64,000 nt of DNA from Botryllus schlosseri (taxonomy: Eukaryota), in contig CM119371.1 of the NCBI GenBank assembly GCA_051294905.1, positions 33,730,001-33,794,000 of the forward strand, given 5' to 3'. The position numbers and the translations under genes are program-made. Below are positions 1,256 through 52,382 of the stretch, one piece after another. The notes below the pieces were generated by a model. The model saw nothing but the letters and a program-made list of their open reading frames with translations. It was not told the DNA's origin and did no database searches. Within the stretch, counting starts at the first letter, position 1; every line of letters starts with the position of its first letter.

Positions 1256-1263
1256 ATGTAGAC

Positions 1264-1857: not shown

Positions 1858-3614
1858 CACTGGCGTAGCAGCATGTGCTGCCGCCCCTGGCTCTCGCTTA
1901 AAATGCCGCCCCCCTCTGTAGACCGCAGCAAATTTCTACATAGATTCATGTTCAATCAATCTTTTCAAAAAATATATTGCAAATAATATGCCGCGTCTCA
2001 GCCTCGCCGTCTCAACGTTAATAACGCCAAAAATAATAAAGACAAGAAATAGCGAACGAATGTAATTCATTTTCGAGTCTTAATTAACACTTGTATAAAT
2101 TTAAGCCCAATCTGTCAATCTGACAATTATAACCAACTTATACAGTTCCTAGGACCGGTTTACCTTCACAGCTATCTCGGTCTGCTGTACCAAATCGTAA
2201 CTAGGGCTGGGCACAATGATTCGAGTACTCCAATCTGATGACTCAAGTCGAGTAGTAAAATACCATTTTTTTCGAGTACTGAAATTATACGCTCCTCGCC
2301 ATTGATGTTAATTTATCAACAATAATTATAGCTTCGATACTATTTTCCACTGTGGAAGCCTTGAAACATTGATTGGCCGTATCGCAGCATACAAAACATG
2401 TAGTGCAAAAGTTATTAAGTTTAGTGGAAATACCACATTTCAGAAGTCATGATCACCCCTCAACATTGTCACAAAATGCAACGAATTCAGTATGGTCGAA
2501 AAAATACCAAAGTATCTTTATTGTGATGCATAACAGGCATTATATTCTTTGTGGTGGGATAAAAGGTACATATTTTAACTATGACATATGGCATTCTGTT
2601 TTGACCTCATATAGAGGGATATTGGAATACTCGACTCGACTCGACTCGAAGCATATTATTATTAATAAGTGATTCAGAATCGAATCACTCAGGTACTCGA
2701 TTTTGCCAAACCCCAATCGTAACCCAAAGTATAGATCACTAACCTACGGATATAGGTGGGCAACTTAGTTGTCACACTTGAATACCCACTACCCAGACAC
2801 TACTGATGAGACAGTCAAAAGCAGCATAATTGGTCATGGTCATCCTATAGTTGGCCAGGCCCTCCGTGCGGTCAAATTTAACAATACTGATCGTAATCGA
2901 AAGCTATCGTTGCCCTGATTCCGGAAATACAATTTAAATCCTGGTTTGAAAATCGGCAATTTTCCGAATAATCGCACGATATAATTTCCATTATCACGGT
3001 CGATTGGTCATTGTGTTCCGATTGTTAGGAGTGGTTCCATTGTCATGTTAACATATTCCAAATCAGCGCGACACTAGCTTTCGATTGAGACCAGTCTGAC
3101 TAAGCTTCCGGGACGCCAGCTATATAGGACTACCAATTACGCTGCTTTTAGCCGGCTGTTTTGTGTACACTGTGCACTAGGGCTCTTCAAAAATGACTTT
3201 TTTTCTCCAATCGCACTGGCTACTTGATAAAATTGTTAGGTTGCTTAATTTAAGCCTACACACCAAATTTGGTACAATTCCAACCAGTAGCCGCATTGCT
3301 ACGGGAGAAGAAAGTTTTTATTCATTATATAAAAATAAATAACAAAAAATTTGAAAATTTTCTGTTCACCCCATGAAAGTGTTAGGTTGTCTATAGAAAC
3401 GATGTTCACCAAATTTTGTTAAATTCCAGACAGTGGAAGCAGAGTTATTGCCGTCGAAAAATTTGGATTTGAATAAAATAGTACTTACGGTGGGGACCAC
3501 TATAATACATAATTAAAGAATTGGTGTGCACTGTGCAGCCTCATTTTGCCGCCCCCTTGGAGCCTGCCGCCCCTGGCGCAGAGCCAGAACCGCCAGGTGG
3601 CTGCTACGCCACTG
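1858..3614. mobile_element. Non-autonomous hAT element (CAGTGGCGTAGCAGC family)
   Basis: TIRs CA(C/G)TGGCGTAGCAGC; perfect 8-bp TSD CTAGGAGC (1850-1857, 3615-3622). Confidence 0.85.
2202..2715. mobile_element. hAT-like MITE (TAGGGCTGGGCA termini) nested in 1858-3614
   Basis: 8-bp TSD ATCGTAAC on both sides; subterminal TCGAGTAC/ACTCG motifs. Confidence 0.75.
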
Positions 3615-8127: not shown

Positions 8128-8523
8128 GTTACAACTGCGTTTCGCGAATAATCCGAAGATATGCAGTGATTTTTATTGGCACCGAATACTTGATTACTTG
8201 AGACTTGAAATTGACTCGTGAATTTTGCTCCGAGTCATGAGTCAATCCACATTTCTGATACGTGAGACGCACACGATTCCAAACAAGTATTTATTTATGG
8301 AGCACATTATTTTCCTCTGTGGTTTGCATACGCGCTGTGGGCTCAGATTGCATAAACACTACTATAATGAGATCGAAAATGTAAATCGTGAGAATCGCGC
8401 CAAGCACGAATTTTTTTAAGTTGAATTAAAACTCTCAGAAATTGCCGAGTTGGTTCGTGAATTCAAATTCATGGTTCAACGGCCACAGGTCAGCCACCGG
8501 GGCCCGGGGCTCGGGGCTTATAT

Positions 8524-8557
8524 TATAGATAACTAAGGTAAACCTTAGTTATCTATA
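8524..8557. mobile_element. 34-bp palindrome of two P-like TIR tips (probable excision footprint)
   Basis: TATAGATAACTAAGGT-AA-ACCTTAGTTATCTATA flanked by 7-bp direct repeat CTTATAT. First 13 nt are identical to the TIR at 26184. Confidence 0.7.
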
Positions 8558-11044
8558 CTTATATAGCTCAGGGGCCACCACTGATTTAGTGCATCGTCGC
8601 TGGGTGCGGCGGAGGTGTGTCTGCACCATGCGTCTCTATAAAATCGACGTAAAAGCGATCGCTCATCGCTGCATCTGCGTGTAGTGTAGTGCAGAGATGG
8701 CGTATTGGCGACGTTATTACCGATATCGGTAGCCTACTTAAGATTTTGGGACATTTGTCAGTCAGTACTATAGTCAGGCTTCTCTATTAGCTATGCGGCA
8801 TGCTTGGATTACGGTGCCTGCCTTGTGTTGTAGGATTCAAGCGATCACAATACTTTGCATCATGCAACGTGCATATTTATATTTTGCCTGATATAATTAA
8901 TGCTACTTTTTCATGTATCTGCTCCTTGACTATAGTGTTTCATTATCATTACTGTAACAGGGAATGTAAAAAAATTGAACTACATGGTTTGGTGAGCAGA
9001 AAACGGTCGGTTTTAAATATGCTATAACCTCGCTGTTTCTATATCAGTGTTGAGAAATGAAGTTTTCTACACTTTGCGCTAGTTACTAGATTCACTCCTA
9101 AAATTACTTGATAATCTGAGGTCTAGTGGGTACCGTTGCGGTAATTGGACATGGAATATGCTGATATGAGCTGTCTCGAAAAAATTGTTTATTTCCAAAC
9201 ATTTTTCAAGGCTCAGCCACCACAGAGAGCTACTACACTACAAAGAATTACACAAATTTAGTCTCCAAGTGAGTTTATTAAATTGACAGTGTTTCAACTT
9301 TTTAAGACTATATAGAATTGTCACGATTATTCGTTCTTCAAAATAAGACCAATAAACGCATCTTACAAGACACAGAGTGCCTATTAAGACAGTTTTCGAT
9401 GCATCAGTGCTTTTGGTCTGGTTTTTAAGACGAATTTTTCTAATCAAGAAATAGCATGGTCTGTGGTCTTGAAAATGAGACCGGAAAGTTGTCATGAGAC
9501 AAGAACATAACACATCACTAGCTTATTGAGACCATTTTTGATGCTTCTGTTTTTTGGTCTAAATTTTAGCCACCCACTACAAATGCTAGTATTGACTCAG
9601 ACAGCCGTATAGCCGTATAGGCTATATTGTTCTTAGTTTTAATTCGGGTCTATTGAGTGGTAAGTAGTATGTAGCCCACCTTGATAATGTTATGTAGTCT
9701 TGCGAACTCCTTACTACGTAATATCCCAACACTTTAAATTCAGGTCTCTCATGCTGTCCCATCACTCAGAACGTAACACTAAAAAGGATGCCCCCGAAAC
9801 ACTGCTAGTATTATTCTTAACGACTTTTCTCTCTGAAAAATCAAATTAAGACCAAATTTGTCTAATCTGTTTTTGAACTATTTGTTAGTACTATTTACTA
9901 CATGTGGTTTTGACTTACCATGCTGACTACTATCTGTAGGTAAATCACTTGAACCCTGAAGTAGGGATGGTGGGAACGTGAAGTAGGGATGGTGGGAACG
10001 TGAGGTTCACATTTGGTGCAAAAATATAGAGATTCGCCTTCGCTTTACAAACCTTGGTAGGTTCTACACTGCGAACCTTCAGATTCACAATGAATTTTGT
10101 CTTTAACATTAGTAGTTTCATATATTACTATCAAATAATTATTCTTCCTCAGCCCATGTATTCTTCCTCAGCCCATTTTTTGTGATTCCTCTTGGATTAT
10201 CCACCGATCAAGGATAATCCCCGAATTATCAGAAAAAAATTCAAATAACTCGGCTTCTACGGGTTGGAATTAGTCAGATTTGTTTTGCATGGTTTTTGAA
10301 GACAGCACAACAATTTCATGGGGTTGACCGAAAAATTCGAAAAAAAAAATTTGCGTTTTTGGGTAAACTCGAAATTTTCAAACTCTACAAAATCCGCGAT
10401 TGTTGGTTGGAATGAATTCAAATTTGGTGTGAGTCGTTTTTTAAGGAAACCTAACGATTTAATATCGGAGCCAGCAAGATTCGGGTAAAAAAGTTTTTTT
10501 TTGAACAGCCCTAGAGTCCATATTGCGCCGGCTGAGGTGGTGATGATGTGACTTATCATACAGATGCATTATAATATCTCCAGGTGTGTTGTAGTCCTAT
10601 GTAGCAGTTGGTCGCCTACTTGGTGTTTCAAATTAGATAGGCCCTGTTTTGTTGTATAGCAGCATAATTTATGGAGTACTAGGAGTTTTAATTGACTGAT
10701 GACAGCCGTCTTCCTTCCCGACTTATACACTGAAAAAGTTGGTCATATTAAATTTTTTTGTTGATGTCTTGAATCAACTTATTATAAAAAATTCTTGAAG
10801 ACCAATCAGTTTTTTCAAGTAGGCCTACTTCCTATATCATTACCCAGGACCAAATCGCAGAAAGCCAAGATCCAAATTGCCCAACAATAAGACTTATTGC
10901 GATTCTGATCCCTGAGCGGAATCTTGGTGCCTTTCCTGAATTAGATTCTATGCGAAGGATTTGAATTCGCAGTGTTAGGATACGGTATTACTGTGCTAAG
11001 GTGATTGCAAGATATCAATTACATAATGTTATAAAGGTATAAGG

Positions 11045-24091: not shown

Positions 24092-26387
24092 CCGTAAATG
24101 CCGCACCCGAATCCCGCTAATTGAAGGGGGCCCAAAGTCATTGCATGAATGACCATAAAATAAAGCGTACTTTTAAAAAAAAGTTCATCCAACTTATTCA
24201 GTTTTTTGTCGCGCTTTGAGCGATTTAGTGTCACTAAATGCATTAATTTCTGGGTGCCCTTCCCCCACGAAATACGCATGATTTATAGTAATATACATCT
24301 CGACATCAGTCACTACCACGCAACGACGCACCAACACATGATGAAGTTATAGGCTGACACGGGACTCCAAAATGTGTGTCGAAAATTTAGCAGCGAGAGC
24401 ACCTTAGCCGAAAAGGACACGGCCCTGACCGAAAACGTCGATATATTTATACGTCAATTTGTCTATAGGTGCCTTAATGGCTGGCGCCGAATTCCACTGT
24501 CCATACAATCTGTACACCATATGACAAATGCTATCCCACAGTGAATAGTTCTTTTTCCATTGCAGATATATAAATTTGGAATCGTGTGCGGAGTCTGAGC
24601 TGGAAGGAGGCCCAAAATTATTTCGTGAATGAACATAATTTATTGAGTATTTTTTTCTCAAACTTAATCCAAATCTTTTTAACCTTTTAGCATCAGTAAA
24701 TGTCTTGATTATTGGGTGCCATTCACCCAAGAAATACGCATGATTTGAAGAAATAGGCATTTCGCCTACAGCTATGACCAAACCACGACGCACCAACACA
24801 TAACCAAAGTTTTGACCAACATGGCACTCCAAAAAGTCTACCAAAAATTCAGCAGCAAGAAAACCGTTGCCGAAAAAAAACTGCGCTTTGTTGACTGAAA
24901 ATTTCGATATATTTATATAGGTGCCGAAATGTTTGGCGCCGAATCTGTACCCCAAAGGACGAATGCCCTACCACCGAGAAAAAGTATTTGCCATTACAGA
25001 AACACCAATTTGAAATCGTGTACGTTTTTTTAGTTTAGTGCGTTTGGGCGATTTAAATATCTGTGAACTATTTAACAGACAGTAGGTCACGAAGCAATGA
25101 CATGCGACGAAGCAATTATTCTAACAGGCCAGCCCGAATTATTTATTACGTGCCCTAAATTGTGCAAGACGACAACTTACATAGCTCTACCAAAAATCTG
25201 ATAATTCTGAGAGGATATAAAATTTATAACAATATATATGCAATTACCAATATTATTGACCGATTCAGTCGTGAATTATAAAAAATATTCGCGCTTCGCG
25301 CGGCTAGGTTGCATATGATAAGCTCTCTGCCTACACTGAGTAGAATGAACGTTCGCACAAGTATTGGTTAAAACGACCATTCAACTGTGGGGGAACAAGA
25401 CCAACGTTTTCAGGCGGGTGGGCTGACGGAGTGTTTTTCGGCTCTGATTTTGTGGATGACTGACCAGGTAGGCCTATAGCTGTTGTCAGGTGTTTTCGTG
25501 CGGTGCGGTAGGTCTCGCACTCAGAACCCATTCGTGTTGCAGCTGTGGAATGTAGGCCTACCACTACCCTATCTCTCTGATTTTGCCATAATTACTGGAA
25601 ATATTGTAATGTTGACTAAAAAAAAAGGTCCTCACTCTCCCGAATTATCCTGTATTTACCTATGGTTCGGCAGTGTTGAACGAAAAGTCATTTTTAAGAT
25701 TTGACTCCCGCATACTCCGTCGTTCATCTTTTAGGTCAACATTGAACGTCTTTCGTGGTCTTCCTGGGCATTTCCGGCTTAAAATGAGTATAAATTGTCA
25801 CAAAGGAGGACATTTGGGCCAAGGGAGTACATTTTTCCAAAAATGACGACAAATCGGACTTATGGTAGCTTAACCCCTACTCGAAGGCACCGCAGCGGCC
25901 GCCAGGATAGAAATTGAGGATGGGCGAAATGTATTAAATAATGGCATGACGTCACCAATATACATTGTGACTTAGTGAATTTCATCACACTGCCCAAGAG
26001 GGCATTAGTCTGTAATCTGCGCTCTTGTAATTAGCTGCCTTGAAATGTCTAATTAATACCCTCATACCGTCCATACCGACATTCTAATCTATATAAGATA
26101 TGTATTACCCACTCTATGAATGATTATTACGCACGTTGACATTTCCGTGTGATATTTGCTGCTTCTTTTCTACTCAGTCATACTATAGATAACTAACCTA
26201 CGGATAGATGGGCAACACGTGATTCACGGTCGAGAGACCGGATGCTCGTCAGATTTGTTGTCGCTTCATAGCATGAAGCGGCAGGTTGTTGGCCAGATTG
26301 ACTGTTAAAAATGCAAGTATGTTTGGTGCAGATAGGATATAGGGCAATCAGAACAGGTTATTGATACAGTACATAACCACTGGCGCG

Positions 26388-26961
26388 CAGGGTTGTAACC
26401 AAGTCACAAGGCTCCGAGTCACAAGTCAATCTGATTTTTATAGTTTTGACTCGAGTCAAGTCGAGTCATTTCAATTCACCACCGAGCCATGTCCGAGTCC
26501 AAGTCAGCGAGCAGAGGGTCGAGTCCGAGTCATGGAATTATGACTCGAGTCCGAGTCCAAGTCATTGTATAGACTGCTCAGTTTCCAGTTAAAGTCTTGG
26601 TAAACCCACTTTTATTAACTCTGTTTTGTGATATCGAATGTTTTGCATTTATAATATACCAATTTTCCTCACTTTTAGTAGTTTCTGGTCCCATATTCAA
26701 GTGCCAGTACCAACAGACGTAATCCCAATAGTGTGTTGGCTTCGGAATTACAATGAAATGTCGGTCTTGGCCGTCTGAGTGTCGAGTCAATGACTTGGTT
26801 CGAGTCATGCGCAATGACTCGAGTCCAAGTCGAGTCAATACACATATTCACTCGAGTCGAGTCGAGTCATTTCCGTATTTTGAAAAAATGACTCGAGTCA
26901 AGTCGAGTCATCAGAAAATCGTGACTCGAGTCGAGTCATGACTCGAGTCATTACAACCCTG
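26388..26961. mobile_element. CAGGGTTGTAA MITE, copy 2, inserted in the left P-like TIR
   Basis: Perfect TSD CTGGCGCG; the site is empty in the right TIR. Confidence 0.9.
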
Positions 26962-27529
26962 CTGGCGCGGCTATCATTGCATTAATATCAGGAGGATATT
27001 TCATGAGCAAAAGAAGTCATGATATTCACTCTATTATTAATTGGTTTCAATATTGACTTCGGCTCAGTCAGTGACTCGGCTCAGGCCTTCCATCGTGGGT
27101 TTGGCCATCATTCGTTTTGGCTCACCACGACTTTCAGCATATTTCTAAAAAATACATGATAACCCGAAAATACCTTGAATAATAACTATGAGGAACTGAC
27201 CTTCCAACTCAATAATCGATCCGCAAATTCACTCAGCCATGCAATTCTTTCATCGTCCAGGCTGCATATCGGATAACTAATGCGGCATGTGACGATATTG
27301 AACCATCTGTTTTAGGTCATAAAATCAAGCCCCTTGTTATATAAGTGAAAATTAGTTACTCATACCTTTCCATCATCAGAACAAAATCAGATGTACCGGT
27401 TGCTCCCATCCCTTTCAAACAATTTCCAACTTTGTGACTCAATACACCCGTAGCCAAACTGACATTCATCTGGCATGAAAAATGGTCACATCTCAGCCCA
27501 GTGAATGATTGCAAGCGCATCATCTAGAC

Positions 27530-27842
27530 CAGTGCTTCTCAACCTTTTTCAGTTCGCGTCCCATTTTCCATCCAAATTTCATTGCGTGGCCCACCAGACA
27601 CCCTTTCGCGGCAAAACGTTCAAACCACTACAGACAATAAAGCGAATAGCTGCGGGACTCATGCACTTTCGGACCAAAAACACATTTTTTCCGTAAGGCT
27701 TTAGTGAGTTTAGTCCGAAATTGCATGAGCCCCGCAGGTCCGTCAATTACAGAGAACAGATCTAAAAATTGGAATCTATCATCGTTTCTTAAAATGTCTT
27801 CGCGGCCCAAGTTGGCCGCAGCCCACCGGTTGAAAAGCACTG
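27530..27842. mobile_element. hAT MITE
   Basis: CAGTGCTTCTCAACC TIR; perfect TSD ATCTAGAC; another hAT end (CAGGGGTGTCAAAC) starts right after the TSD at 27851. Confidence 0.85.
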
Positions 27843-28080
27843 ATCTAGACCAGGGGTGTCAAACATATTTTTTGCCTACTTTAGATCGTGGATTTAAATT
27901 AACATGGGCCAATGTCAATCCGGACTAGTAAAGTGCCAGGCTGCGCGATTCCACGTCAAACAGTTTTGGGATATCCGTCCATTATATATCTTGCCCTCTA
28001 CCATTCATGTTCATGTATCGAGATCCCTCTGTTTTCGATGAATAGAGAGAGTTCCGTGTGGTCTGTTAGGATATAAGAAT

Positions 28081-28329
28081 ATCGTCGCAGTGGAATCAAA
28101 GTGACTTATGCCCATTTTACACATTTTGAGAAAATTGAATTTGCGTGCAGTTCTCAGCATCTTTCAGCCATATATTGGCCCTGATTAACTTTGAATTAAT
28201 GAAACTCACATAACCATGGCCAAGCAATGGCCGAAAAAGTTTCAAAAACTTGAATTTTTTCAAGTTTTAAAAATGGACCTTCAAAATTTGAAAACTGGAC
28301 ATAAGTCACTTTGATTCCACTGCGACGAT
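28081..28329. mobile_element. ~250-bp MITE, superfamily unassigned
   Basis: 30-bp perfect TIR ATCGTCGCAGTGGAATCAAAGTGACTTATG. Confidence 0.75.
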
Positions 28330-29829
28330 CATATCGGGTACGGTAATGCTCACCGTACTACAATAATATGATCTAAAATTATCAGGTAAAGCTACCTTGA
28401 GGAGATGCTGAGGATCGGAGCACCATGATCAGTAAATATCCAAGCCTCTAAAAATAATCCTGAACTGCCTACTGCGAATAGGGCTTAGCATTAGTTGAAG
28501 ACTTATTTACGGAATAACTGTTACCTTGAACATTTTTAGGAAGGTCATTAATAGCATCTCGAAGTGCTTTGAGTGAAGAGTGAACTTGTCTGCGAGGTGA
28601 TAGATGCCTGCGGTTTGTGGGAGGTTTCCTGACTGAAGACTTTGCACTATGGGATTTTTGTGGCAAATTCAAGGTTGGCAAGGCTCCGCAACGAAGAGAT
28701 CGTTTTCCACCAGCAGATATGATTATGGCGTCCTTTTCAAAATGGTGATCACAGATGGCTGCACTGGAATATGAAACAGTATTACTCTCGCATTATTTTC
28801 ACAATAATTCAAGCAGAATAATAAATATCCAGAAATGATCGGACTGAACGAGATATTGTAGTATTGACATACTGGAAACTGAAAATAAAAACAACTTGCA
28901 GCAGTGGAAGCGAAATATAGAATATGGTAACATAGAGGATAACATGTAGGCTACTTCCAATTATAAAGGTAGAGATAGTAATTATTATGAGACACAGCTG
29001 ATACTTACAAGAAACAAGTCGAACTTACGTTTCTTTATGCAGTAGATGTTGGAAATTATCACCTTTGGACGGATCCCGCCAATGCAATATGAATCGGGTT
29101 AAAGCACGTCTGTGCCTCCGCTCTTCATCAGACCTTGCCAAATCTGGCCTATATATTGTGAAGACGGAGCGTTTTTCCTTAGATTTCCGCTGCCAGTGAC
29201 ATCCTGGTATTGCGCAGGTGTTTGCCATACTAAGCGTTCAAGACTCAATAATTAACAAAATGCTCATTATACCAATCTGAAATTAGTCAAGTTCTCCAGG
29301 TCAAATCCAAAATACCTGAATAGTGCATTAAGTCACAAATTGAAGGGTGGTGCAAAATCTATCGAAATACTGGTATGGTTGCTGCATCACAGCACAGCAC
29401 AGTGCGCAGAAGCTTGTTGACTGACAGCTGACTACGAAGTGAAATTAATCCGGTTGTCGGCCTGGAGGGCACTCATTTGAGTACAGGCACCCTGAAAAAA
29501 TCTTCTTTTACTACTCGATTCAGATTCGAGAATCATTGTGCCTAGCCCTATGCACACATGATATCCTCAGTCAGTAATTCGAAATATAAATATTCCATAT
29601 TAATTATGCCTGGATTATGAAAACATATTCTCTTTATTTAGCAATACATACTAAAAACCTATCTCTTATTATTAGGGCGTTTTTTTACCACATAATGTTA
29701 AAATTGTAGCCAACTTCTTATCTTCATTTCTGCAACAGGGGTTAAACCCGCTCAGAGGGTGAACGTGAACTATTGAACGCTGTATATCAGGGGTCACCAA
29801 CCTTTTTGCAACCAAGGGCTACTTTTGGG

Positions 29830-32141
29830 CAGGGCATGGTATGGTATGGTATGGAAGTATGGTATGGTATGGATCGATATTTTGGTATGGAATATGGAAC
29901 AATGCAAGTATGGTAGGGAATGGAAGATTTTAATCTATGGTATGGAAAGACATTTCCATACTTCCATACTTTGGTGTTTTATACATCTTATCGTGATTTG
30001 TGCAAGCTTCATGAAGCGTACGTTGATCGCTGTTCACGGAATACGATCGCTTTTGTTATGTGTGAACGTGAACTATTGAACGCTGTGTAGATACAAATAC
30101 ACGCTTGTTCAACGGTTTAGGAGCACTTGGAATGACATGATTTTGTGATGTAATAATGACAACAGTAATGTTGATCCGATATTCTATTGAGTCTGGACTA
30201 GAGGTCGACCGATTATCGACAAGGCCGATTATCGAGGCAGATATTTAGAGCTTACCCGATTATCGATATCGGCATATGAGTGCCGATGTCTCGGCAGATA
30301 TTTTATATTTAAAAATATTTCAAAAATATTGGAAATTCAATGCTCCGTGTTCTGAATCTCAAGAAATCGACGACGCAAAGGGCGATATATGACAGATTTA
30401 CCCTTGCACGACGAGTTTAAGTAGGTGAGCATGCAGAGAACTTACCTTTTCGGGACTGATCTGCAATTCTGTATCATGTTTGACTTTTTGGGTTATCCCA
30501 AATTTCAACGAATGTGCACAATTAAGAAAAATTATTTTCAATTTCAGTTTTCTAGTTTGTTGTTCAGCATTCTGTGGCATGAACAAGTGCCATCTTGCCT
30601 AACATATAATATTTTTGGTGAAATTGTTCTCTGCTCCTTCCATATTAATATCGGCCTATGATATCGGTTATCGGCCTTGTGAGTGTGTCGAGATATCGGT
30701 ATCGGCCTGTAAAAATCGATATCGGTCGACCTCTAGTCTAGACACGACGCCTCCGAGCATAGGCTATCACGTGACGCAATAATTGGTAATGTAGGCAACT
30801 CCAGCTACCTCATTCCTTGAGTGACGACAGCTTACAAGCAATCATGATACAACGTACTAATTGCTCAATGTGATTGATAATTACATTTCTTCTGAAACAT
30901 TATCCTCACATTTATACTATTTACATACCGAGATATCCTATTGGTCATATTTCAAAATCTCTCGCATTAGGAATATAGATCAGGGAGTGGGGTAGACATA
31001 GTTTGAAATTCTCGCCACGCTAACCCCAACCAAATACTGTACTAATAATCACGCAGATCGCTGCAGTATTGACCGCCTGTAGCTGGGATATTTTATGGGT
31101 GCGCCCATATTATGAATTATTTTGCGAGTATTTACTTCAAACTTGCACGTGTCTTATGCCAATGTACTGGAAATGCGATGGTATTCTTATGGAGCAGGGG
31201 CGGGCAACTTCTCCAGTCGGTGGGCCGGATATAGGAAAATTAAGTACTTGGCGGCCGGATTGCTGAATGGATACATTATTCGCGCACATATACAAAGAAT
31301 AAATCGTATTTAATGAATGTATTTTATCGACATCCGCAATGTGGCTTTAAACCATTTCTCGTCGACAATGACAATACAATGTGGATTTGAGAACAGTATT
31401 GTCATACAGGCGCCGCCATGTCTGCTTTTCTCTGATCAACTAACTCACGGTGCAATTCTTAATTTTGATTTCAAAGCGATTGATGAGCCCGGTATCCAAA
31501 ATTTACCATTCATTAGGGTTGAGTACATCGTAAGTGCCGATAATGCAAGTCTTCTCGCTGCGATGAACTTACGCGTAAGCTCCTCTCTAGCACGTTGCGA
31601 AAAGTGCGCGCACCTATATAATAACATACAATATCTAAAATTTGACGTTTAGGCAAGTAGTGGGGAGTCTCGGCAAACTGGGGCCTCGGGCCACATTATC
31701 ATGTAAGACGGGAAACTGTCCACGGGCCGGAGAAAATCTCGTCGCGGGCCGTATGTTACCAATCCATTTTATGGACGGTCCTAGATAACAATCTGCTGAC
31801 TATATCATTTTACTCATGGAAGCTGTAGAGTAGACGTACACGGCACCTCACCACCGTGAACTAAAGCTCACCAAAACAGACTCTGTAAAACTAGTGCAAG
31901 GAATTAGATTCGCCTCATGGCTAGTTTAGGCAATAATGACATCCGAAATATCAATAATATAGGTGCTAGTGAAGGAACTATACTTATGATATTAAAGTAT
32001 TTGAAAGTATGGAATAAGTATCAAGTATGGTATGGAACAATGTTGGTATGGTATGGAAAATTGCAAGTATGGCATGGAGAGAGTACGGCAAGTATGGAGT
32101 ATGGAAAATTCTCGTTCCATACCATACCATACCATGCCCTG
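29830..32141 (+). mobile_element. Full copy of the CAGGGCATGGTATGG family (hAT-like, GTATG-rich ends)
   Basis: TIR CAGGGCATGGTATGGTATGGTATGGAA; perfect TSD CTTTTGGG. Confidence 0.9.
30199..30735. mobile_element. TAGAGGTCGACCGAT MITE, copy 2
   Basis: TIRs; TSD GTCTGGAC/GTCTAGAC; site empty in the paralogous copy (~33525). Confidence 0.9.
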
Positions 32142-33559
32142 CTTTTGGGTACTGATTGATGCGACGGCTACCATTTACTCCCGCTGTTTACCCGTATCAG
32201 ACGGAATTTCCGCTTTGATATTCATAGAATTGGGCATGGGCAGGTATCGCGTAGCAGTAACACTTCTACGAGATTCATTTGATTCAAAACATCTCATTTC
32301 AACCAGCTAGCCACGAAGACTTTTTAAGAAATCACGAATTACTTCGCACCGTGTTTATATAAATTATTATATAACAACTGTAAGCTCAGATTTTAAAATA
32401 AATCACGCCACACGTTAGACTGGACATCGTGTTATTTGTTTCTATACCGGTCAGTGGGAGGTATGGCATTGCATGCTATCAACCAGTGCGCTGTACTCTG
32501 GTATGCAACTTGCACTGCAACTCTGAGTGAGTGTTGCAAAGGCTGATACACAACGATAAGTTGAACCAAACACGCTAGCAACCTTCATAGCTGCTGCACA
32601 AGTGCGCATTCACCACTGTACTTTTCCGTGTCAACAAGGCACCAAAAGTTTGCTGCAGCCTTGTGGGCTTTGAGGTGGAGGTGATCTCGCAATGATACAA
32701 TTTCAATCTCTGACTGTTCAGCATCCAAGCATGACAGATTTCATTATACCTGACAGCAGCATCGATTACACAAAGTTAGAAACATGGTACTATAAACTTC
32801 GTTCAGTGTAAGAGAGACAAGCTGTGTCAAAAGATGCAATACGTAATGTTCATACTGCATCTGCTAGTACGTCAGCGCTATCTGCTACCGGATAGTAATG
32901 TTGTTTACTACTTTGGCCTTGTCCGGGACGTCGAGCTACCATAACTGAGCCCCCATAATTTCAAGAAGACCGTGGATGGCATGCCGTCATATCGCCTGTA
33001 TGGGCAGTACGCCGTATTCTACGTCTTCGATCTCTTGTTATTCTATTACATGTTATTGAATAGTAACCTATATTCATATTCATACTATTCAATTGTATAT
33101 TGAAGTTCTGTACCTCCAAGAAGCTCTTCAAATATTACATGTTGGTATATTATTAATTTTAATTGGGGATATTTGATATCATCATTTCAAGTGTTTATAT
33201 ATATATGTATTGTCATTTCTAAGTCACATGTTATACTTTGATTTAAACAAGAATAGGTAAATCACTCAATTTATATATTTAAAAGGTCACTAGTGATAAT
33301 CTGACGAATATTGGCAAATGCTGCTATTCGATCTATTTTTGGAACAGGCTCGCGGGCCACTCATCTGGTCTTCGCGGGCTACCTGGTGCCCGCGGGCACC
33401 AGGTTGGTGACCCCTGCTGTATATGATCAAATACACGCTTGTGCAACGGTTTTTGGAGCACTTGAAATTGCATGATTTTCTGATGTCATAATGACAACAG
33501 TAATGTTGGTCCCATATTCTATTCAGTCTAGACATGACGTCTCCGAGCATAGTCTATCA

Positions 33560-34709
33560 CAGGGGTGGGCAAACTTTTGAGTTCGCGGGCCGCATTCAAC
33601 ATCTGGATCTATTTGCGGGCCGCACTATATAAAATTGGGATTATAAACCAAAACGCAGTATTGGTATTTGATTATATAGTGATGACATGGAGATAATATA
33701 TATGCTTAATAAAACAAACCAAACATTGTTCGACACGCGTCAGAAACAGTGACGAGATTTCATAGGCTGGTCGACCTATTAATAACCAATTTGTCAAAAC
33801 TATAGAGATGAAAGTCGGTTGTCCCGATTCTTAGAACAGGATTGAAATTTAAATCTGTGAGCAGCGATCTGCTCATAGATTTACCAATTTCACAAATGGT
33901 CCAGTTCCAGGACACACAATGCTGACAGCACCATAACCATGTTAGTTTCAAGCAAGCTTCCACTATGTGTAGATAAAATATAAATACCCAATTCCACGCA
34001 TCAGAGAACGAATCTACCTAAGACACGCGCGAATCGTTTTTTATAAGTCTATCACTGAAATGACTAAAACTAAAGTGGCCAATCTGAAATCACACTCATG
34101 ATCCGAATCATGTCAATCTCGTTTAGAATATCTGTGATGTTTAGCAGTTGAAACCTTTCAAACTGCGTGGGCCTTGAGATCGGGCTCTCACGCCAGAAAT
34201 TAAACATAAAAAATATTATAGGAAGTATTTACCTTAGAACAGTGATTCTCAAACTTCTTAAGATACGCCCCCCCCCCCTTATGATGGTCAAATATTTTGC
34301 GTCCCCCGTATCGTCATATCACTAAACGCAACCAGGATGCTAGCCAATCTAACGGGTAGTTTGATGGCATGGAAGGCTACGACTGTGGATGAGAGATTTT
34401 TAAATATGAAATTCAGACTTAAATACAGAGCATATAATTATGAATGACATATGTAAATCGCGCGAACCGCGAAAACTTTTTTCAGTTGAGCTCAACTTCG
34501 CGCCCCCCTCCAGATGCTTTCACGCCTCCAGTTTGAGAACCACTGCCTTAAATCATGGTGAAATATACTACGAAAAATCCCTGCATTAATTCGATTTTTA
34601 GTACGCGTTTTATCAATATTTTTACTAAGTTTCTTTACACGCTCGCGGGCCGCACAAAATGGTGTTGCGGGCCGCATGCGGCCCGCGGGCCGTAGTTTGC
34701 CCACCCCTG
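33560..34709. mobile_element. hAT element with a smaller hAT MITE (34240-34545) inside
   Basis: TIR CAGGGGTGGGCAAAC; perfect TSD GTCTATCA; inner MITE TSD CCTTAGAA/CCTTAAAT; related to ~4020-4343. Confidence 0.85.
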
Positions 34710-34745
34710 GTCTATCATGTGTCTATCATGCGGTAATGTTGGCTA

Positions 34746-37700
34746 CACTGTTAGAAAAATTAGTAAATTTACACCTATTAATTAGTAAACCAAATACGAA
34801 TTGCTGTAGTAACATAATTTACTATCGTTTTTAGTAAACCCGTCAATTATTACTATGATACGGATTATTGGTACTGTGTATCGATGCTCCTGAATTACTA
34901 AATATTGAACATTTTCAGACCATGAGATTTGCGAACCACGAAATTTGCGTATTTACTATTTAGTCTTCAAAAATAAAGCGTAAAAGGAGATCTGAGGTAT
35001 ACATAGGCCAAGCCTCACCTGTGATGATACCGTAATTCATCATCAACGACTCAGAATTTATAATAATTGTTATTATTCGAATGCTATTGTCACACCGAAT
35101 TTGAAAACCCAATTAATATCGTCAGAGCATCAGAACTCAGAATCGCGCCAAATCACCCAGGAATGAAATTCTGCATAGTTACGTAACAATCCAAGAATTT
35201 GTGTTCACCAGGTCGTGACAAATTACTGATTCACGTGCTAGGATGTAGGTGTTGCGGTCGCATGTCAGGCGAAATATCGGATTTAGGAGGAAGCTGTGTT
35301 GGTGTCTAAGATAAAGAAATGGCAGTAGATTTGAAATGCCGGGTGGTCATCTGCAGTATGGAACTTTCTTCAACATCAGATATCTTTTGTCACCTGAAAA
35401 GCCATATTGGAAGCGGATTATTCGTCAAGTGTCCTTATCTGCACTGTTCCAAGAGGTATGACGTGTATCGTCATTTTCCAGTCATGTTAGCCGATATCAT
35501 ACCGTTTCGGATCAGACCAATGTGATTCAGCCAACTAACCATAATTCTGCTAGTACAAGCCCGAGCTCAATCGCCCAGGATCTGTTGCCTGCTGCCGATG
35601 TAACGAGCGACAACGCTCAGGAAGAGGAATTTAGGAATGATAACCCGAGCATCATGTTTGCAATGAGGATGGAGTACAAAAACCTCATTCCTTCAACTAC
35701 AGTGCAAGAGATCATGGCTGAGCTGCGTAAGCTATTAGCTTCCCATTGTAACGAGATTGTAAAACAGGTTAAAGCCTCAATCATGGAGCAAGAAAATACT
35801 GAACTTACCAGTACATCTCATACTGAGCGCTGACCAGAAATGTCTTATCGAAGAAAGCAGAAAGGCAGTTCCAGACAGAGAGGAAGTGAGAATGCTAATG
35901 TAAACTACATACCGACTCCATTCCAAAGAAAGGCAATCAATCAACCTGCTGCAGTATCAACAATCCGAGAAATGTGGCCCTTTCTCTTTGAAGTTGAGTT
36001 CATGTTCCAACATTATGGTATTCTCACTGGGACAGGAAATTCCAAGCAATTCCTTATTCGCAAGATGGACAATAACTGGCCTCGCATTCAAAAGTAAGCA
36101 AGATTTTTTTGTAATCTCATAAATAGGCTACACACTATAGGGCTGTTCAAAATATGAAATTCCTTCAGATTTCACTGGCAACTTGATAAAATTGTTGGGT
36201 TGGTTAAAAAAATGCTTCACACCATTTTTGGCTCAATTCTAACCGGTAGAAGCGTGATTCTTGTAGCCTAGTAGAAAGTTTTGAAATTATCATTAAAAAA
36301 TGGAAATTTCAAAATTTTTCTGTTTTCCCTCATAAAATTCTTAGGCTGTCAGTAGAGATGATGCATACTAAATTTGGCTCAATTCCAACCACTAGAAGCG
36401 AAGTTACTGCAGTAGAAAAATTTTTAATTCCATGATTTTATAACAAATAATTGAAGAGTTGGTCACCGTAAATACTTTTTTTTCTACTGCAATAACTTCG
36501 CTTCTATACACACTGTACTAGCATATTTCAAAGACAATTATATCAACGAGATACCGGTTATCTTTGCTCTCTTTTTAAATAAATGCTAATTGTACTCTTC
36601 ACAGGACATTAAAAAATATGACGGCGCAGAAAGTACAGAAAACACTGTCAAGACTTTCAACTATATGGGAGATAACGAAATCAGAATCATATGCTTCCTC
36701 TCTTGGCATCCTCGAGCTGATCTGTGCGTTCTTTGACGAACCAGCCTCTCAATTGTTCAAAAGAATGGTTAGTATTATATTAGCCCCAAAACCTATTTCT
36801 TGAATGTTTCCAATGTAGTTCTGTTCTATTGTTGGTAATAACTTTGTTTAATAATTTTGTTGTTGCCTGTCCTCTGGTAAAAGATTTTCACTACTCAAAA
36901 ATGATATTGGAATCATTGCTCACACATGCATATCTGTTTTCAGGAATTGCTCAAGATTTAATGGCAGATGCGCCGAACCACCCATTCTTGATTACAATCG
37001 GTAAGTATGTACATAAAGTATGGGTCACGTTCACACTGATGACTAACTGACTGTTACTGAATTTATTGCAAGTATAAAGTCATCGTGCGAATCTCATGGA
37101 CTTAGGTCGGGCATAATGATTTGAGCCTCAAATTGAATCAAGTATTAAATCATTTCATGTTGAAACCGCTTTGTAGTGTAAAAATGATTGCCCACCCCTG
37201 CTATTGTCAGTAAGTGACATGCACAGAATAGCGGCATAAGTCTCGATTATGAAAAATGTGTCCGGTTTTGTATTGCACAAGTCGGTTTGATATGAATGTA
37301 AAAATCGTCTGATTTTTGGTTTCTCTGGAAATTTGTTACCTCCGTGAGTGTGCTTGGTGAGCGTGGTGTAGAGATAGGGAGTGCGAGCAAGTTGGTACCA
37401 CTGATAAGACAGTCACAGGTACTCACTATCTTGTCAATAGTTATGCCGTAGTTGTGAAAATGAAATACTTCCCATAACTACTTTACAAAATCTGAACGCT
37501 TGAAAGTCAGTAGTTCTGCCCATCACTGTTTCGTACAAGTGGAAGTAGTCAAATGCCACAACCACTAGAATATAAGTAGCTCAAGTAGGCAACATTGGCA
37601 AACCTACTTGAGTATGCCAAAATAATAGATATAGATATACTTGATTACTGACCAGCGCCTCTGGTTGTCGGCACAGTCTCTATTTCATAACCTAGCCAAT

Positions 37701-39092
37701 GGCGTTAAATGTGCTGCATACTAACAATGCATTTTTGTGTTAGTCATGGATCCTGAGAAGATAATTAACCTTATATTGATGCCTTGCTCTTCTGAAGTGC
37801 CTACTAGCACTACACTCGAGTGGTTGGATTTTTACGCTTCTTCTACTCGTAATTGAGTATAAATTTATGACAGTAGCCCTATATCTAGTTGAGTAGCAGC
37901 TCTGACTGCTTTACAACTTTTGTTTATTTTCAGGCTCATCGAACTACAATGTGAAGGAGTTTGTGGTAACTGCCGAAAGATCAATGATATTCACCACGGA
38001 CTCCTTCTACGTTGCTTTGGCGTATCTGTTCGTCACATTCTATGTTTTCAACCTGGAACACCCGAGCGAACTGACAGCCACGTTGGAGTTTATGTAAAGG
38101 TAAGCTGAGTGAGAGTGAGACTATCAAATGTCAACCCATAATGGCAATGACTGATTATGTTTCTTCGCTCGGCTCAGCTGCTTTCGTTCACTGCTGGGCA
38201 GTGCAAAGGCACCTTTATTGGTGATCTCACAGCTGGCAACTGGGGCGCAAAATATTAATGAATCCGGTCCTAATGAAAAGCTAGTGTAACGGTGATTTCT
38301 TAAATAGAAATTAAAATGCGGTATGGGCACTAGAAATGCCTTAAAATCGCCCTGAAAAATCTGACATCTGCAATATTTTAAACAATCAGAGCTCTGCAAC
38401 ACATTGACAATAACAATTAACTATTGTGGTGCTCTGCTTGCTTATAACAATCACAATTTAACACGAAAATGTTAACATATGGGGTACTGGTAGCCCATAG
38501 TGAATAGGCTGGAGAACTTTGTTAATACAGCAATATAGTTTTGTCTGAAGCAAATTCGCTCTTGTTGATGGCCAGCCCCCAGTTATGTTATAAGATATAT
38601 TTCATATATTACAGAGTCTTCGCCGAGATTTCCGAAGTGTTCAAGAAAGAGAAAGACACTTAGAGTTCATCCAAAGGTGATGAAACTCACCAACCTCCTG
38701 CGGGAAACGGAATAAAACATGAAAATAAATGCTTTCATGCTGCAGCATTTGATTCAATTATTTCCATGGAGTTGTGCGTATTACCAGGGCGCGAAGTGTT
38801 AGAAAACCGCCATGCATATAGCATTAAGTCTATCCATACATTGATTGACACTAGATAGGGCTGTGAATTCAGTGCTAGCTTTACTAGTAATTTACTAGAA
38901 AGAGTAAAAATATTACTAATCTTTAGCATCAAGGTTACAAGAGTGAGTAGAAATGCTGCTTATCCTGAGTCCAGAAAATTTACTAAAGTTATAGTAAAAA
39001 AGTTACTAATTTTTAGTATGTAACGTTACCAGGGTAAGTAAAACTGCTGCCTCGCAATTAGGAGTAAATTTACTAAAATTTTTCTAACAGTG
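34746..39092 (+). mobile_element. Animal CACTA/EnSpm-type deletion derivative
   Basis: CACTGTTAGAAAAA termini, 2-bp TA TSD, AGTAAA/TTTACT subterminal repeats. Remnants of a C2H2-led ORF (35319-35815) and of a spliced SAMD3-like second ORF (TPFQRKAINQ..WPFLF..HYGILTG; YLFVTFYVFNLEHPSELTATLEFM). Confidence 0.8.
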
Positions 39093-40020
39093 TACTCCAA
39101 CTACCTCATTCCTTGAGTGACGAGAGCATACAAGCAATCATGATGCAACATACTTAATGCTCGATGTGATTGATAATTACATTTCTTCTGAAACATTATC
39201 CGCACATTTATACTATTCACATACCGAGATATCTTATTGGTTATATTTCAAACGCTCTCGCATTAGGCTGATAGATCAGGGAGTGGAGTAGATCTAGTTT
39301 GAAATTATCGCCACACTAACCCCAACCTAATACTGTACTAATAATCACGCAGATCGCTGCAGTATTGATCGCCTGCAGCTGGGATATTTTATGGGTGCTC
39401 CTGCTCCTATATTATAAAGTATTTTGCGAGTATTTACTTCAAACATGCACATGCGTCATGCCTATGTACCGGAAATGCGATGATATTCTTATGGAGCGGG
39501 GGCCGGATATAGGAAAATTAAGTACTTCGCGGGCTGGATTGCTGAATGGATAAATTATTCGCCCATGTATACAAAGAATAAATCGTATTTATCAGTGGCG
39601 GCTCGTGACAATATCGGGTGGTGGGGCAAGGGCTGCGAGCGACTTTTATCAAGATGACGTCACAATGGCGTTTTCCAACGTAAAAAAGTAACTTTATGAT
39701 GGTCACATGAATTTCCCGACAACAGTGATTTTAACGTAGGTGCCGCGAGAGGTTTGCCGGTGAGCCGTGACTTGAAGTGTGGTAACAAATGTTTTATTCA
39801 TTTATTTTTAATCAAAGGATTATTTTACAAAATGAACGTGAACTAAGAATCGCCCTATGCCACGAATCAAGTATCAGGTCATCCTTAGTAGCATGCGTTA
39901 TGATTTCATGGTAGAGTTAGAGATTACGCAAATCGATTGACCCTAATTTTTCTAAGCCCGTCCGAAAGTGTTTCGTACACGATCCTGGTGTGTTACGACC
40001 ACTGAGCTGGTGGTTACGAC

Positions 40021-40296
40021 CAGAGATGGGCGGATTCCAAAATTTCGGGATCCGAATCTATCCGGATCCGGCTTGCAATTGGAAATTCAGAGTCCAAAGA
40101 AATCCGGCTGGTGAATGTCCAGTTCGGAATCCGAAAAAATCCTGCCAGAACAATGCTAATTAATCATATCACAGCAAAAATAATCCGGCTAAAATCCGAC
40201 CGTCACCCCAAATTCAAAATCCGGATCCAGTCCGGCCAGGTAAAAAAAACATTGAAATCCTGCTCCGGCTCCAGAACCGGACTGTGGCCATCTCTG
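40021..40296. mobile_element. CAGAGATGG MITE with ATCCGG repeats
   Basis: Perfect TSD GTTACGAC. Confidence 0.85.
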
Positions 40297-40709
40297 GTTA
40301 CGACCAGGTGATAATAGGCAACCAAAGCGGAGGCACCCGGCGTACGATTGGATCAATAGACTGGACGTGGACAACTTCTAGACCTCTCATTTTCGCTCTA
40401 AAGGCAACTGCGTAAACTACGTACGCAGCAAAGATTCAATACGATTCATGTTCGCGCTTGACTTGACCTGACTAATTCCAATGACTAACTCGAGAGATTG
40501 CGTAAGCCTAACTGGAAAGGTCAACGAGTTCGGACACATACGCAATTGTTATCTCATAGATTGGGCCTGTCATATTGAATCCAGAACATCAATTTGAATG
40601 GTCTTTGAAGAACTAAGGACAGCAGCCTCGGAACTTCGGTCTCGGAACAACATAGGACATTTTGGCCTTGAAACTGGAGACTGTGACACAACACATACGG
40701 CTTACTGTC

Positions 40710-42563
40710 TATACGGCCGTAAACCAAACTTTACGCTGATTGGTCGAGAGACAATGGCCATGGATACGACGCAGCAACGGAGGACGCTGCATTTACTTCA
40801 ACATATAGTCGGCACTACGATGTATTCCTATAGCCGTGCAGACTGTATAAAAACGACAAGATTACAGTTAAATGTTTATTTCTTCATCAATAATGAAATT
40901 AGGAAAGGAAATAAAATATTTAATAACATATACTGAAATATAATGCCGAAAAACTACTGTGTTTATGAATGCAGTGCCACCAATGGCAATGAACTGGGGA
41001 AGAACAGATCTTTCCATTCATTTTCTTCCAACGCAAAGGACAGAAAGGCTTGGGAAGGCAGAGTATAAGAAGGCAGGACTATTTGTGGCATACATTTGGG
41101 CCTGAATTTGTTGCCAATAAGAGTGATTTACTTGTAATTATCTAGCAGCAGTCAAATAAAAACTACTTTCCTGTGATTTCTGCCCAAGTTCAAATTTCAT
41201 GAACTCATTGCATGTGCTGTTACGATACCTCAAGCACACCAGTGCAGATGAGGTCTGCTCAGCTAGAATCACTCTATCATGTGAAGCACCCAGATATCCA
41301 TATGGAAAAAGAACATGACCAATCTTTGCTACATTCACATGCGTGATGCTTAGTAGTCTTGAATGGCGCTTTCTTCGTGCAATAACCCCCACAATATTGA
41401 ATACCAGTTGATACTGTACTGTCATTGAAGTGATTTGAAAAGAGATGTTGCATATGGAGTACATGCTGTCTTGTTCCCCTCAAAGCAGTCCAAAATCCTA
41501 CCAAAATTGCTACTTGTGAGTCGAAGAGCCCAATGTATTTACCCCATTCTGCACATCCTCTCTGTTCTGATGTTCTGTGGGCTTAGGTAGCTAATCTGCA
41601 TATGACTGACTTCGTTGGCCTCTCACCCTAAGATTCAGGTGATGGATTTGAAGATTCCATTTCAAGGCTACACGATGGCGATTCTAGATCAGGATCACCA
41701 GATGACAATGTAAGATTTGCATGTGCAGCATCCACAACATTGCAGGAAGACAGTTGACACGGCATGGAGTTCAGGGTCCGCCTCTTTGCAATGCGCATAA
41801 TCTTCTGCTTCACCACGGAGATTGCGACTGGGAATCGCACCTCTCTTTAGACGTGACTGTATTGGTATATCTATAATGCACTAGCAGCAAAATCTTCCTT
41901 GCAAAATTGGTAGGAGCAAATTATTATTATTATTATTATTGTACACAACTGTGGTGCTTTTAGCCTGTTTAAGGCTTTGTGCTCCACGACATGACAGTAT
42001 TCGAACTGATCAATGCATTTATTCTTGTCTTTGACATTCTTTCCACTCTCTCATGCATCGGCTCGCGATTCATCGGCTCTTTAGCTGCCGACTTGTAGCT
42101 CGCCTCACTGTGATTTCTGGGCTTTTTAAGTCAGTGCAACTGCAGTGAGGTCGACGATGAGGAGTAAATGAAGCTTGTGGAAGTAGGCTTGAAATCCTGC
42201 CTTCTTACTCTGCATTCCCAAGCCTTCCTGACCTTTGCGTTGGAAGGAAATGAATGGAAAAATCTGTTCTTCCCCAGTTCATTGCCATTGGTGGCACTGC
42301 ATTCATAATCACAGTAGTATTTCGGCATTATATTTCAGTATATGTTATTAAATATTTTATTTCCTTTCCTATAATTTCATTATTGATGAAGAAATAAACA
42401 TTTAACTGTAATCTTGTCGTTTTTATACAGTCTACACGGCTATAGGAATACATCGTAGTGCCGACTACATGTTGAAGTAAATGCAGCGTCCTCCGTTGCT
42501 GCGTCGTATCCATGGCCATTGTCTCTCGACCAATCAGCGTAAAGTTTGGTTTACGGCCGTATA
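40710..42563 (-). mobile_element. THAP-containing foldback element (~370-bp TIRs), copy A
   Basis: 40710-41080 is inverted at ~42197-42563. ORF 42328 MPKYYCDYEC...FFHSFPSNAKVRKAWECRVRRQDFKPTSTSFI is a THAP N-terminus. No TSD longer than TA is visible. Confidence 0.8.
41922..42159 (-). mobile_element. Retroposed 3' fragment with (AAT)n tail interrupting the THAP ORF
   Basis: Flanked by ATTT(A/G)CTCCT duplication; same insertion in copy B (55586-56270); removal restores FICS..F.KEDF. Confidence 0.65.
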
Positions 42564-44962
42564 AGTCTGCTGCGAAATCGCCGTTGGAAAATATATTAAT
42601 CAATAAATACATGAATAAAAGCCGTAAACTTAGTATACTGTTACAAGAAATCATCGAGAAGTAGCATACGCAATCTCATAACCCATTCCGGTATGGTACA
42701 CTGTCAAAATCAATACAAACAGACGAACACCGAACTTTGACTAAAATAGATCGAGGAATAGGCTGATCGAATGATCAGCTGTTTGCCGACATCGAAAATG
42801 AAATAGCTATCGCATTTGACAGAAGATTGTAAGCAAATGGTTAGAAGGCCACAATTTCACAGTGAAATGGACATTGGCGAACATAAAATTATGTGAATAT
42901 TTGAATGCAAACCGAGAATCTTGGTTAGCTGTTTCATGCGATCATCGAGATATACCATTGGAAATATCATCACCGATCTCGTTATGGGAACGCAGACTAT
43001 AGATTAGCACAGACCGACACCGGCTTTTGCGTGAGATCCGCAATGACGTAGGTAGGCTAAGTATCAGATCAGCGCGCATCTCTACCATACTCGACCTCGA
43101 AAACGAAATAACTGCCTCAATCATTGAGTGTCAACTTTAAGACTTGGCACCGCGTTCGATACTAAAATCAAGACATACCGTGCAAAAGCTCATGACAGAT
43201 CTAGGTATGGAACATCGTTAAAATCAATAGAGACCAATAACGGCTTTTGCGTAAATTTGTTAGCGATAAATGAAGAGTCAGCTCTTACTCGACTTTGGAA
43301 ACGAAATTACCACCCACATAGTTCAGTGACAAACTTAAAACTTGTTACAGCGGTCGATACTAACACTTACCGTGCCAAATGTCATGACCGATCTCGGTAT
43401 AGAACATCGTCAAAATCAATGGAGACCAATACTGGCTTTTGAGTAAAATCTGTTTGCTGTACTATGTACAATTGTACATGATAGATCAGCACACACTGAA
43501 CTTCGGAAACGGAATTACTACCCTTATCTTTAAGTAGCAAGCCTGAAACTTGGAGCAGTGTTAAATACTACCTTCACGACATATCATACCAAGTTTCAAG
43601 AATTATCATGGTGCGAAACACAGTCAAAATCGACCTATACCAGCAAAGGTCGACTCAACGCATATTACGGTAACCGAGTTCAGATATAGATACGATTGTT
43701 ACATCACACCTTAGGGGCGACAGGCATATTTGCCCCGGTTGCTCGGCCATTTTACGAATAGGAGAGAGTAAATCACCGTTTCTTTATTGTGCGCGGCTTT
43801 GAGAGAATAGATAGTGAAAGCTTGTTATGAGCGCTACCGGGGCAAGCCCCGGCTAGGCATTCTCAAAGCGAAAACACAGAAGAGAATTCGATTTTCGCAG
43901 AGACTTCGCTATGTATGGGCCTTTGCAAGCGAAAGCACAAGAAGAACGCGGGTTTCGCTGTGATCTCGGTATGTATTGATTGCTGTGCGTCTATAAATGG
44001 TTAAATTGTTATTGAACAGAATTTTAGGTGGGGCAATGCCCCAGTTGCCCTATAGGACGAGCCGCCACTGGTATTTATTGTATGTATTTTATCGACAGCA
44101 ATGTCACTTCAAAGCCATTACTCGCCGATATTGAAAATACTATGTCGATTTGAAAACAGCATTGCCATACAGTCGCCGCCATGTCTGCTTCTCTCTGCTC
44201 AACTAACTCACAGCGCAATCCATAATTAAGATGTCAAAATGTTTGATAAGCCCCCTTACCCAAAATTTACCAAGATATCAATTCATTAGGGTTGAGTACA
44301 CCGTAAATGCCGATAATGCAAGCCTTCTCGCTTCGAAGAACTTACCCGTAAGCTCCGCTCTCGCACGCTGCGCAGTGCTCAGATCTATATAATAACATGC
44401 AGTCACTAAAATTTGACGTTTAGGCAAGTAGTGGGGAATCTCAGCAGACTGGGGCCGCGGGCCACATTATCATGTAAAACGGGAAACTGTGAGCGGGCCG
44501 GACAAAATCTCGTCGCGGGCCGTATGTTGCCAGTCCCTTTTGTGGACGGTCCTCGATGACAACCTGCTGACTATCTCATTTTGCTCGCGGAAGCTGTAGA
44601 GTAGAGAGATACACGGCACCTCACCACTGTGAACTAAACCTCACCAAAACAGATTCTGTGAAACTATTACCAGGAGTTAGATTCGCATCATGGCTAGTTT
44701 AAGCAATAACGACATCCGAAATATGAATAATATAGGTGCTAGAAAAGGTACTATACTTATGATATTGAAGTATTTGAAAGTATGGAATACGTATCAAGTA
44801 TGGTATGGAACAATGTTGGTATGGTATGGAAAATTGCAAGTATGGTATGGAGAGAGTAAGGCAAGTATGGAGTATGGAAAATTCTCGTTCCATACCATAT
44901 ACCATACCATGCCCTGAATGTGAGACGCCGTATAGCTACTTGGCGTCTGAATTTGTCTAGCG

Positions 44963-48224: not shown

Positions 48225-48385
48225 GTCTAGCGTATAGGAAACTATTTGAGGGTAGTAACGCTCACGAAGGATTGCTAAAGGGTCGAAGTTGGGAGCTTTA
48301 ACGCCGACAAACAAAAGATGTCTGCTACACTATGGTAGACGTCTTTCGATGCTTATGATTACCGAGTTTCCTTGCACTTGCAGCA

Positions 48386-52135: not shown

Positions 52136-52382
52136 TTCATTGTGACTTTTACTATGGTTCCACTGCCATTTCTTGATGACTTTTAACTGTGCCAATGCTT
52201 TTTCTCAGTCATTTTTACTGTGGTTCCACTGCTCATTTCTTAATGACTTTTACCGCGGTTTCATTGCCTTCTGCTGTGGTTCCGTTGGCTATTTCATATT
52301 GTGGTATTGCAGTTTCATTACATACTGTATCTGCAGACTTAAGTCTGAAATTCATTGCGAGTGTACAAATATGGGGTGGTGA

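Follow-up and report, generated by a model that had tools for sequence, protein, structure and literature searches.

The feature under study lies at 8517..8564 of the window (the whole 64-kb stretch of DNA that was analysed) and consists of 34 nt at 8524-8557, TATAGATAACTAAGGTAAACCTTAGTTATCTATA, with the heptamer CTTATAT on either side. The left TSD copy occupies 8517..8523 and the right copy, its sequence repeat, 8558..8564 (both plus strand), and the coordinates, the TSD and the 34 nt between its copies are correct as given in the preliminary description. Between the two copies, a left 16-nt arm (8524..8539, plus strand), whose first 13 nt are the TATAG-family terminus, and a right 16-nt arm (8542..8557, minus strand), which is its exact reverse complement, enclose an unpaired AA at 8540..8541, a putative end-joining junction at which other genomic copies differ by −1, −2, −3, or +5 nt. 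The “34-bp palindrome” first described is thus a real hairpin, but not a perfect one, since its 16-nt perfect arms surround two unpaired letters. The same holds for its division into “exactly 17+17” nt of TIR: because the central AA is unpaired, with an A at position 17 on the left and a T on the right, 17+17 fits as one parse of several, and 16+2+16, 18+16 and 16+18 fit too. The arms are separated by 2 nt, and the hairpin contains neither interior nor subterminal transposase-binding sequence. It is the only one in the window with arms of at least 16 nt and a loop of at most 4 nt, comparable hairpins were absent from all 30 trinucleotide-block shuffles of the window, and among the 17 window hairpins with arms of at least 10 nt it alone is bounded by a flush direct repeat. 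Its fold has a z-score of −7.1, with none of 200 shuffles equally good. The hairpin at 8524-8557 is not a product of chance.

The surrounding region, 8150-9050, was compared with four of 14 listed public runs (X1, X4, X7, and X8), which represent at most three samples. X1 and X4 are one sample, in agreement with the window and perhaps its source, and hence not independent of it; X7 is another sample with the same species label, while X8 carries another label and has a depth of 3.5. One contig each in X7 and X8 omits exactly 41 nt (joint 8516->8558) and constitutes an empty allele with a single CTTATAT, in which seven letters at the joint fit both sides and at least 255 letters lie on the shorter side. 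Since this 41-nt-shorter allele keeps a single CTTATAT, the 34 nt together with one copy of the TSD form an insertion polymorphism, and 8524-8557 is a recent insertion. Over about 770 nt, 14 letters of the X7 haplotype and 15 of the X8 haplotype depart from the window; because nearly all listed differences are common to both, the two empty alleles count as one observation. Over 8234-9046, X7 and X8 show an almost identical haplotype under different organism labels. No full-element allele at 8517..8564 was found among the listed contig ends of the four runs, nor a paralogous empty site for it within the 64-kb window. Close by, 8202-8262 is part of an extremely abundant repeat, with a contig depth about 24,000 times that of the single-copy flank in X1.

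The 34-mer has further copies in these genomes. Contig depth at position 8540 was 3161, 1027, 3412, and 16.1 in X1, X4, X7, and X8, vs. 98, 16, 86, and 3.5 in the flank, and the depth stemming from other loci amounts to 30, 63, 40, and 4.6 times the flank, respectively. In X7 and X8 all of the depth at this position stems from elsewhere, because their own locus is empty there. We read these values as presence of the 34-mer at several to tens of loci, contig depth not being a copy number. The X1 and X4 contigs of the locus itself break inside the hairpin (one end at 8550, starts at 8524 and 8528), and, given how word-graph assemblies behave, exact copies would therefore exist elsewhere.

Among the listed differences, junction variants of 30, 32, 33, and 39 nt were found, all of them altered at 8536-8541, and no substitution in the 8524-8557 arms was listed for any of the four runs. 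The 33-nt form accounts for 7, 7, 19, and 74% of the other-locus depth (X1, X4, X7, and X8, respectively), the 39-nt form for 9, 1, 4, and 25%, the 30-nt form for 6, 3, 3, and 0%, and the 32-nt form for 4% in X7 only; together they make up 21, 12, 31, and 100%. This leaves up to 79, 88, 69, and 0% of the other-locus depth with no listed variant, values that are upper bounds for the exact 34-mer because some indels and contig-end differences are unlisted. With 69–88% of the depth unexplained in this way in three of the four runs, the exact asymmetric 34-mer may therefore dominate. As to the variants themselves, the 33-mer is what two 17-nt tails overlapping by a single A:T pair would give, and the 39-mer, which has perfect 18-nt arms, is consistent with an insertion of 5-6 nt templated by the neighbouring arm. 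The length prediction made at the outset was borne out, in that remnants elsewhere measure 30-39 nt and vary at the junction and not in the arms, a range whose tightness is partly built in because the visible forms are only those that align to the 34-mer.

Five TATAG ends occur in the window, at 2730, 26184, 53722, 59660, and 60235, and the 34-mer matches them at 13-15 of 17 positions. At positions 14-15, however, it reads GG where all five window ends read CC, so the window TATAG elements are its relatives and not its parent; a parent with GG at 14-15 was found at none of these five ends. The “same terminus type” that had been ascribed to the hairpin and to the MITE at 59660 accordingly extends over the first 13 nt and stops at the GG vs. 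CC difference. That MITE (59660..60235, 576 bp, 218-nt arms) belongs to a related family and is flanked by GTATATC, a 7-bp TSD as originally described. A lone TATAG-family end lies at 2730..2764 (plus strand), its partner end not being found in the window, and old sequences related to the inner part of the 59660 MITE, 64-77% identical and with decayed ends, lie at 2797-3159, 5747-6108, 38190-38417, and 54558-54919. Beyond the window, the 16-nt arm had 104 matches in a metagenome scan, but no match was accompanied by a partner end or aligned to the window in BLAST, and five scans of the genome and viral collections for the hairpin or for TATAG-family ends all gave none. A single metagenome match (L018) that by eye had seemed a TATAG-family end was rejected as plant-like LINE DNA.

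The remaining pair of ends bounds an element with TIRs of about 310 bp (26184..53722, minus strand), which looks like an internally deleted P-type relic, again a relative and not the parent, and which measures 4021 bp without a nested insert of 23.5 kb. It is flanked by GTCATAC on the left and by the same 7-mer on the right, there behind a 7-nt tandem duplication. This duplication, at 53723-53736, spans the right end of the relic and shifts the TSD by 7 nt. The 7-bp TSD is exact at two of the three paired elements and exact at the third after the duplication. On the minus strand of the relic, 28472..28792 encodes the second half of a THAP domain (Pfam PF05485, E 0.0011, 20.1 bits vs. a cut-off of 23.9), whose first half was read by eye in the ORF at 29028-29237, which had no database match; in the Atlas the THAP piece obtained a score of 0.91, with 29 of 30 matches in THAP clusters. 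Downstream of it, 27359..27523 (minus strand) resembles a piece of the P-transposase GTP-binding insertion domain (Pfam PF21788, E 0.041, 14.7 bits, cut-off 24.8) and is interrupted by a nested MITE. Both matches lie below the Pfam cut-off and come from 23 queries, only one of which matched PF21788. The order of THAP followed by GTP-binding domain is that of the P transposase layout (PMC7776569).

Other searches added little to these two pieces. Of a DDE catalytic core, in this internally deleted and interrupted element, inspection by eye showed a DxxH-like motif near 28420, which has no Pfam match; PDB and protein-database searches with the relic pieces returned chance matches or nothing, and the Atlas gave no confirmation of the GTP-binding-domain-like piece. 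Pfam returned no P-domain match for 14 further relic pieces and nothing useful in whole-frame scans of 26184-53722, and the viral loci searched for support of the P relic yielded none. With the THAP and GTP-binding-domain relics, both below the Pfam cut-off, the earlier view of the TATAG family as P-like is upheld to this extent: on two sub-threshold Pfam matches and one Atlas result, the window family looks P-type. Elsewhere in the window, an open frame at 17546-18547, in which some ten C2H2 zinc fingers are encoded, is probably a host-gene exon, and another at 1127-1777 (minus strand), without Pfam match, presumably resembles, judging by eye, a Gypsy gag N-terminus.

Within the P superfamily, 7-bp TSDs are made by Galileo and 1360 (PMC3698922, PMC4168063), which likewise have a GTANTAC-like target and a THAP-bearing transposase (PMC4168063, PMC3698922). 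The three TSDs of the present family, CTTATAT, GTCATAC, and GTATATC, agree with GTANTAC, the consensus of Galileo targets, at 12 of 18 positions (P = 0.0002 vs. random window 7-mers), in a comparison of n = 3 TSDs that was chosen after the fact. Long TIRs, as found in the related window elements, are a further point of likeness to Galileo and 1360, although the host differs. The termini of Galileo and 1360 differ from TATAG.

We regard it as moderately probable that the 34-mer and its length variants elsewhere are end-joined donor-site excision footprints of a P subfamily with 7-bp TSDs and tails of 16-18 nt. A P-superfamily element, autonomous or non-autonomous, of a TATAG subfamily with GG at 14-15 would have inserted at CTTATAT with a 7-bp duplication. 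A transposase would later have excised it by a staggered P-type cut, leaving 16-18 nt of each TIR as single-stranded tails, and end joining of both tails would have produced the 34-nt hairpin with both TSD copies retained. Repeated at many loci, such events would account for remnants of 30-39 nt that have the same arms and differ at the junction. In this scheme the parent, its excision, the length of the tails and the route of repair are inferred from the remnants. Among the traits of a footprint, the locus has kept both TSD copies, as against a single CTTATAT in the pre-insertion allele, and the copies elsewhere have lengths near 30-35 nt with junction heterogeneity (30, 32, 33, 34, and 39 nt).

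The long staggered cut has been described for the fly P transposase, an enzyme that binds internal sites and cleaves 17 bp inward from either end (PMC7776569); the donor site is left with 3' tails of 17 nt (PMC2895639). Fly P footprints likewise keep both TSD copies and a remnant made of terminal-repeat letters only (PMC2895639, PMC7776569), and likewise cluster at 30-39 nt, their junctions showing short overlaps and templated insertions (PMC2895639). In Table 1 of that study, on Rad51-mutant flies, 28 of 66 P junctions were 30-39 nt long, with modes at 30 nt (14 junctions) and 32 nt (5 junctions), and none of the 66 was a blunt 17+17 joint or 34 nt long (PMC2895639). A length of exactly 34 is therefore not itself a P signature: the apparent mode here is 34 nt, free of microhomology under the 17+17 parse, whereas the flies had 0 of 66 such joints (PMC2895639). 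By this comparison the junction spread, with its constant arms, short overlaps and a templated-looking insertion, is P-like, and a dominant exact 34-mer would not be. The fly element also differs in its 8-bp TSD and its terminus CATGA, vs. 7 bp and TATAG here, and fly P footprints were induced, while those described here are a natural multi-copy polymorphism in a non-insect animal. Furthermore, the difference at position 17 presupposes that the parent ends were asymmetric, that a base was added recurrently, or that the copies share a common origin.

A natural parallel is the footprint of BuT5, a P-associated MITE (PMC3698922), which in Drosophila mojavensis likewise is a genomic remnant composed of both ends of an element mobilised by P and read as an excision footprint (PMC3355041). 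The BuT5 remnant differs in being 27 bp long (12+15) and single copy, in lying at an inversion breakpoint between 9-bp TSDs, and in having a known parent (PMC3355041).

Unlikely, yet with a chance that deserves attention, is a microhomology-free 17+17 joint as the main product at tens of loci that never held a full element, in which case the 34-mer would be either a self-moving 34-bp unit or a scar of aborted integration. Taken separately, the former would make the 34-mer a tiny mobile unit, or micro-MITE, spread from one master with 7-bp TSDs, its other lengths being later slips at the hairpin tip; we consider this improbable. Like MITEs, the 34-mer is multi-copy, TIR-bounded, TSD-flanked, non-coding, and polymorphic with empty alleles, the TSDs being known for the 8517..8564 copy alone; a full allele was not seen among the listed contig ends of the four runs, and neither the window nor the collection scans yielded a parent. 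The preliminary description had named an invariant multi-copy micro-MITE as the case that would speak against a footprint, and this is approached in three of the four runs, where the exact 34-mer, with the same asymmetric centre, is apparently the commonest form (up to 69-88% of the depth carrying no listed difference), but not in X8, where that share is 0%. The variation, moreover, sits at the junction and leaves the arms without a listed substitution, unlike ordinary decay from one master, and centre-focused variation, together with a length of 34 bp without interior or subterminal sequence, sets the 34-mer apart from MITEs, whose usual size is far larger. A stretch of 34 bp would be too short for bringing two ends together. 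For the fly P transposase, which depends on internal binding sites and cleaves 17 bp from either end (PMC7776569), such a unit would be a poor substrate, with no space for those sites and with the two cuts presumably meeting at its centre.

About as improbable is a near-precise microhomology deletion, or a gap repair, between the left and right copies of a 5-nt repeat contained in symmetric parent ends that continued as 8524-8546. Each time, whether or not a transposase had cut, symmetric ends would thereby yield a 34-mer with an asymmetric centre, which could then dominate, and the 32-, 33-, and 39-nt forms can be parsed as 1-2-nt microhomology joints, the 39-mer having arms of 18 nt. The “nearly precise excision” of Tn10 is a precedent for such a deletion. 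Long-microhomology joints also make up 20 of the 66 in the fly table (PMC2895639). Against this, the scheme presumes a hypothetical parent sequence, 18-nt arms would also arise if 5 nt were simply duplicated within an existing 34-mer, and the window family ends show no more than a weak CC..GG pair at that place. If this deletion were the true origin, the number 17 would be uninformative about the cut.

Quite unlikely, in our estimate, is an aborted integration in which, after strand transfer at a new target, the element body was lost at the borders between single- and double-stranded DNA and the 5' tails were filled in and blunt-joined, giving TSD+17+17+TSD at a site where an element had never become fixed. 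Such a course would account for an exact 17+17 joint without microhomology as the main product and for the presence of empty or scar alleles only, as seen here, and P ends do bring 17-nt single-stranded extensions into integration (PMC7776569). It would nevertheless require a further pair of cuts and an element whose ends are unlike at position 17; we found no precedent for it in the literature covered, and a passage of PMC7776569 describes target-site repair as uninvestigated.

The nested element within the P-type relic bears on one further reading. It spans 29733-53242 (23.5 kb) and has a 23-bp TIR and an 8-bp TSD, CATTTCTG, the latter being of Zisupton size (PMC11343200). At 48.8-50.2 kb it contains an internally deleted Zisupton-type transposase with SWIM and CxC4 parts, whose sequence passes from CxC4 straight into the C-terminal tail; a protein-database search with the CxC4 piece gave no confirmation. 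Ulp1-like and PHD-like exons, recognised by eye, follow this transposase, and another end of the nested-element type lies near 54961. At 35180-35830 the nested element also holds C2H2-like and helical pieces without relevant Pfam match, which by eye we liken to the N-terminal part of EnSpm-like transposases of animals. That a KDZ/Zisupton or Kyakuja transposase moved the TATAG family, making P geometry inapplicable, is extremely improbable: the SWIM + CxC4 relic does lie between the TATAG ends 26184 and 53722, and fungal Kyakuja elements make 7-bp TSDs (PMC12730594), but the relic sits inside an element with its own TIR and TSD, and the outer TATAG element carries the THAP and GTP-binding-domain-like pieces. 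The assignment of the TATAG family to KDZ/Zisupton was rejected once the nested element's own ends had been found at 29733-53242.

With the excision footprint as our preferred reading, 8524-8557 is a real, young, multi-copy remnant. In the mainly open-access literature that was searched, we found no work on multi-copy P footprints occurring naturally in organisms other than insects, and none in which the cut geometry was read from natural P footprints of non-insects or with 7-bp TSDs. Passages of PMC3952818, PMC9297572, and PMC10983969 were uninformative as to minimal size, the ends of Zisupton elements in animals, and the lengths of footprints. If a parent were found and its tails were 17 nt long, the P cut geometry would have been retained in a distant animal lineage, and the scars would form a natural catalogue of germline repair outcomes. 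Retention of the geometry would be expected; the remnants would be surprising only if a full element had never occupied their sites. Should the 34-mer instead be a self-moving 34-bp unit or the product of aborted integration, it would reveal a new way for transposases to place short hairpins in genomes.
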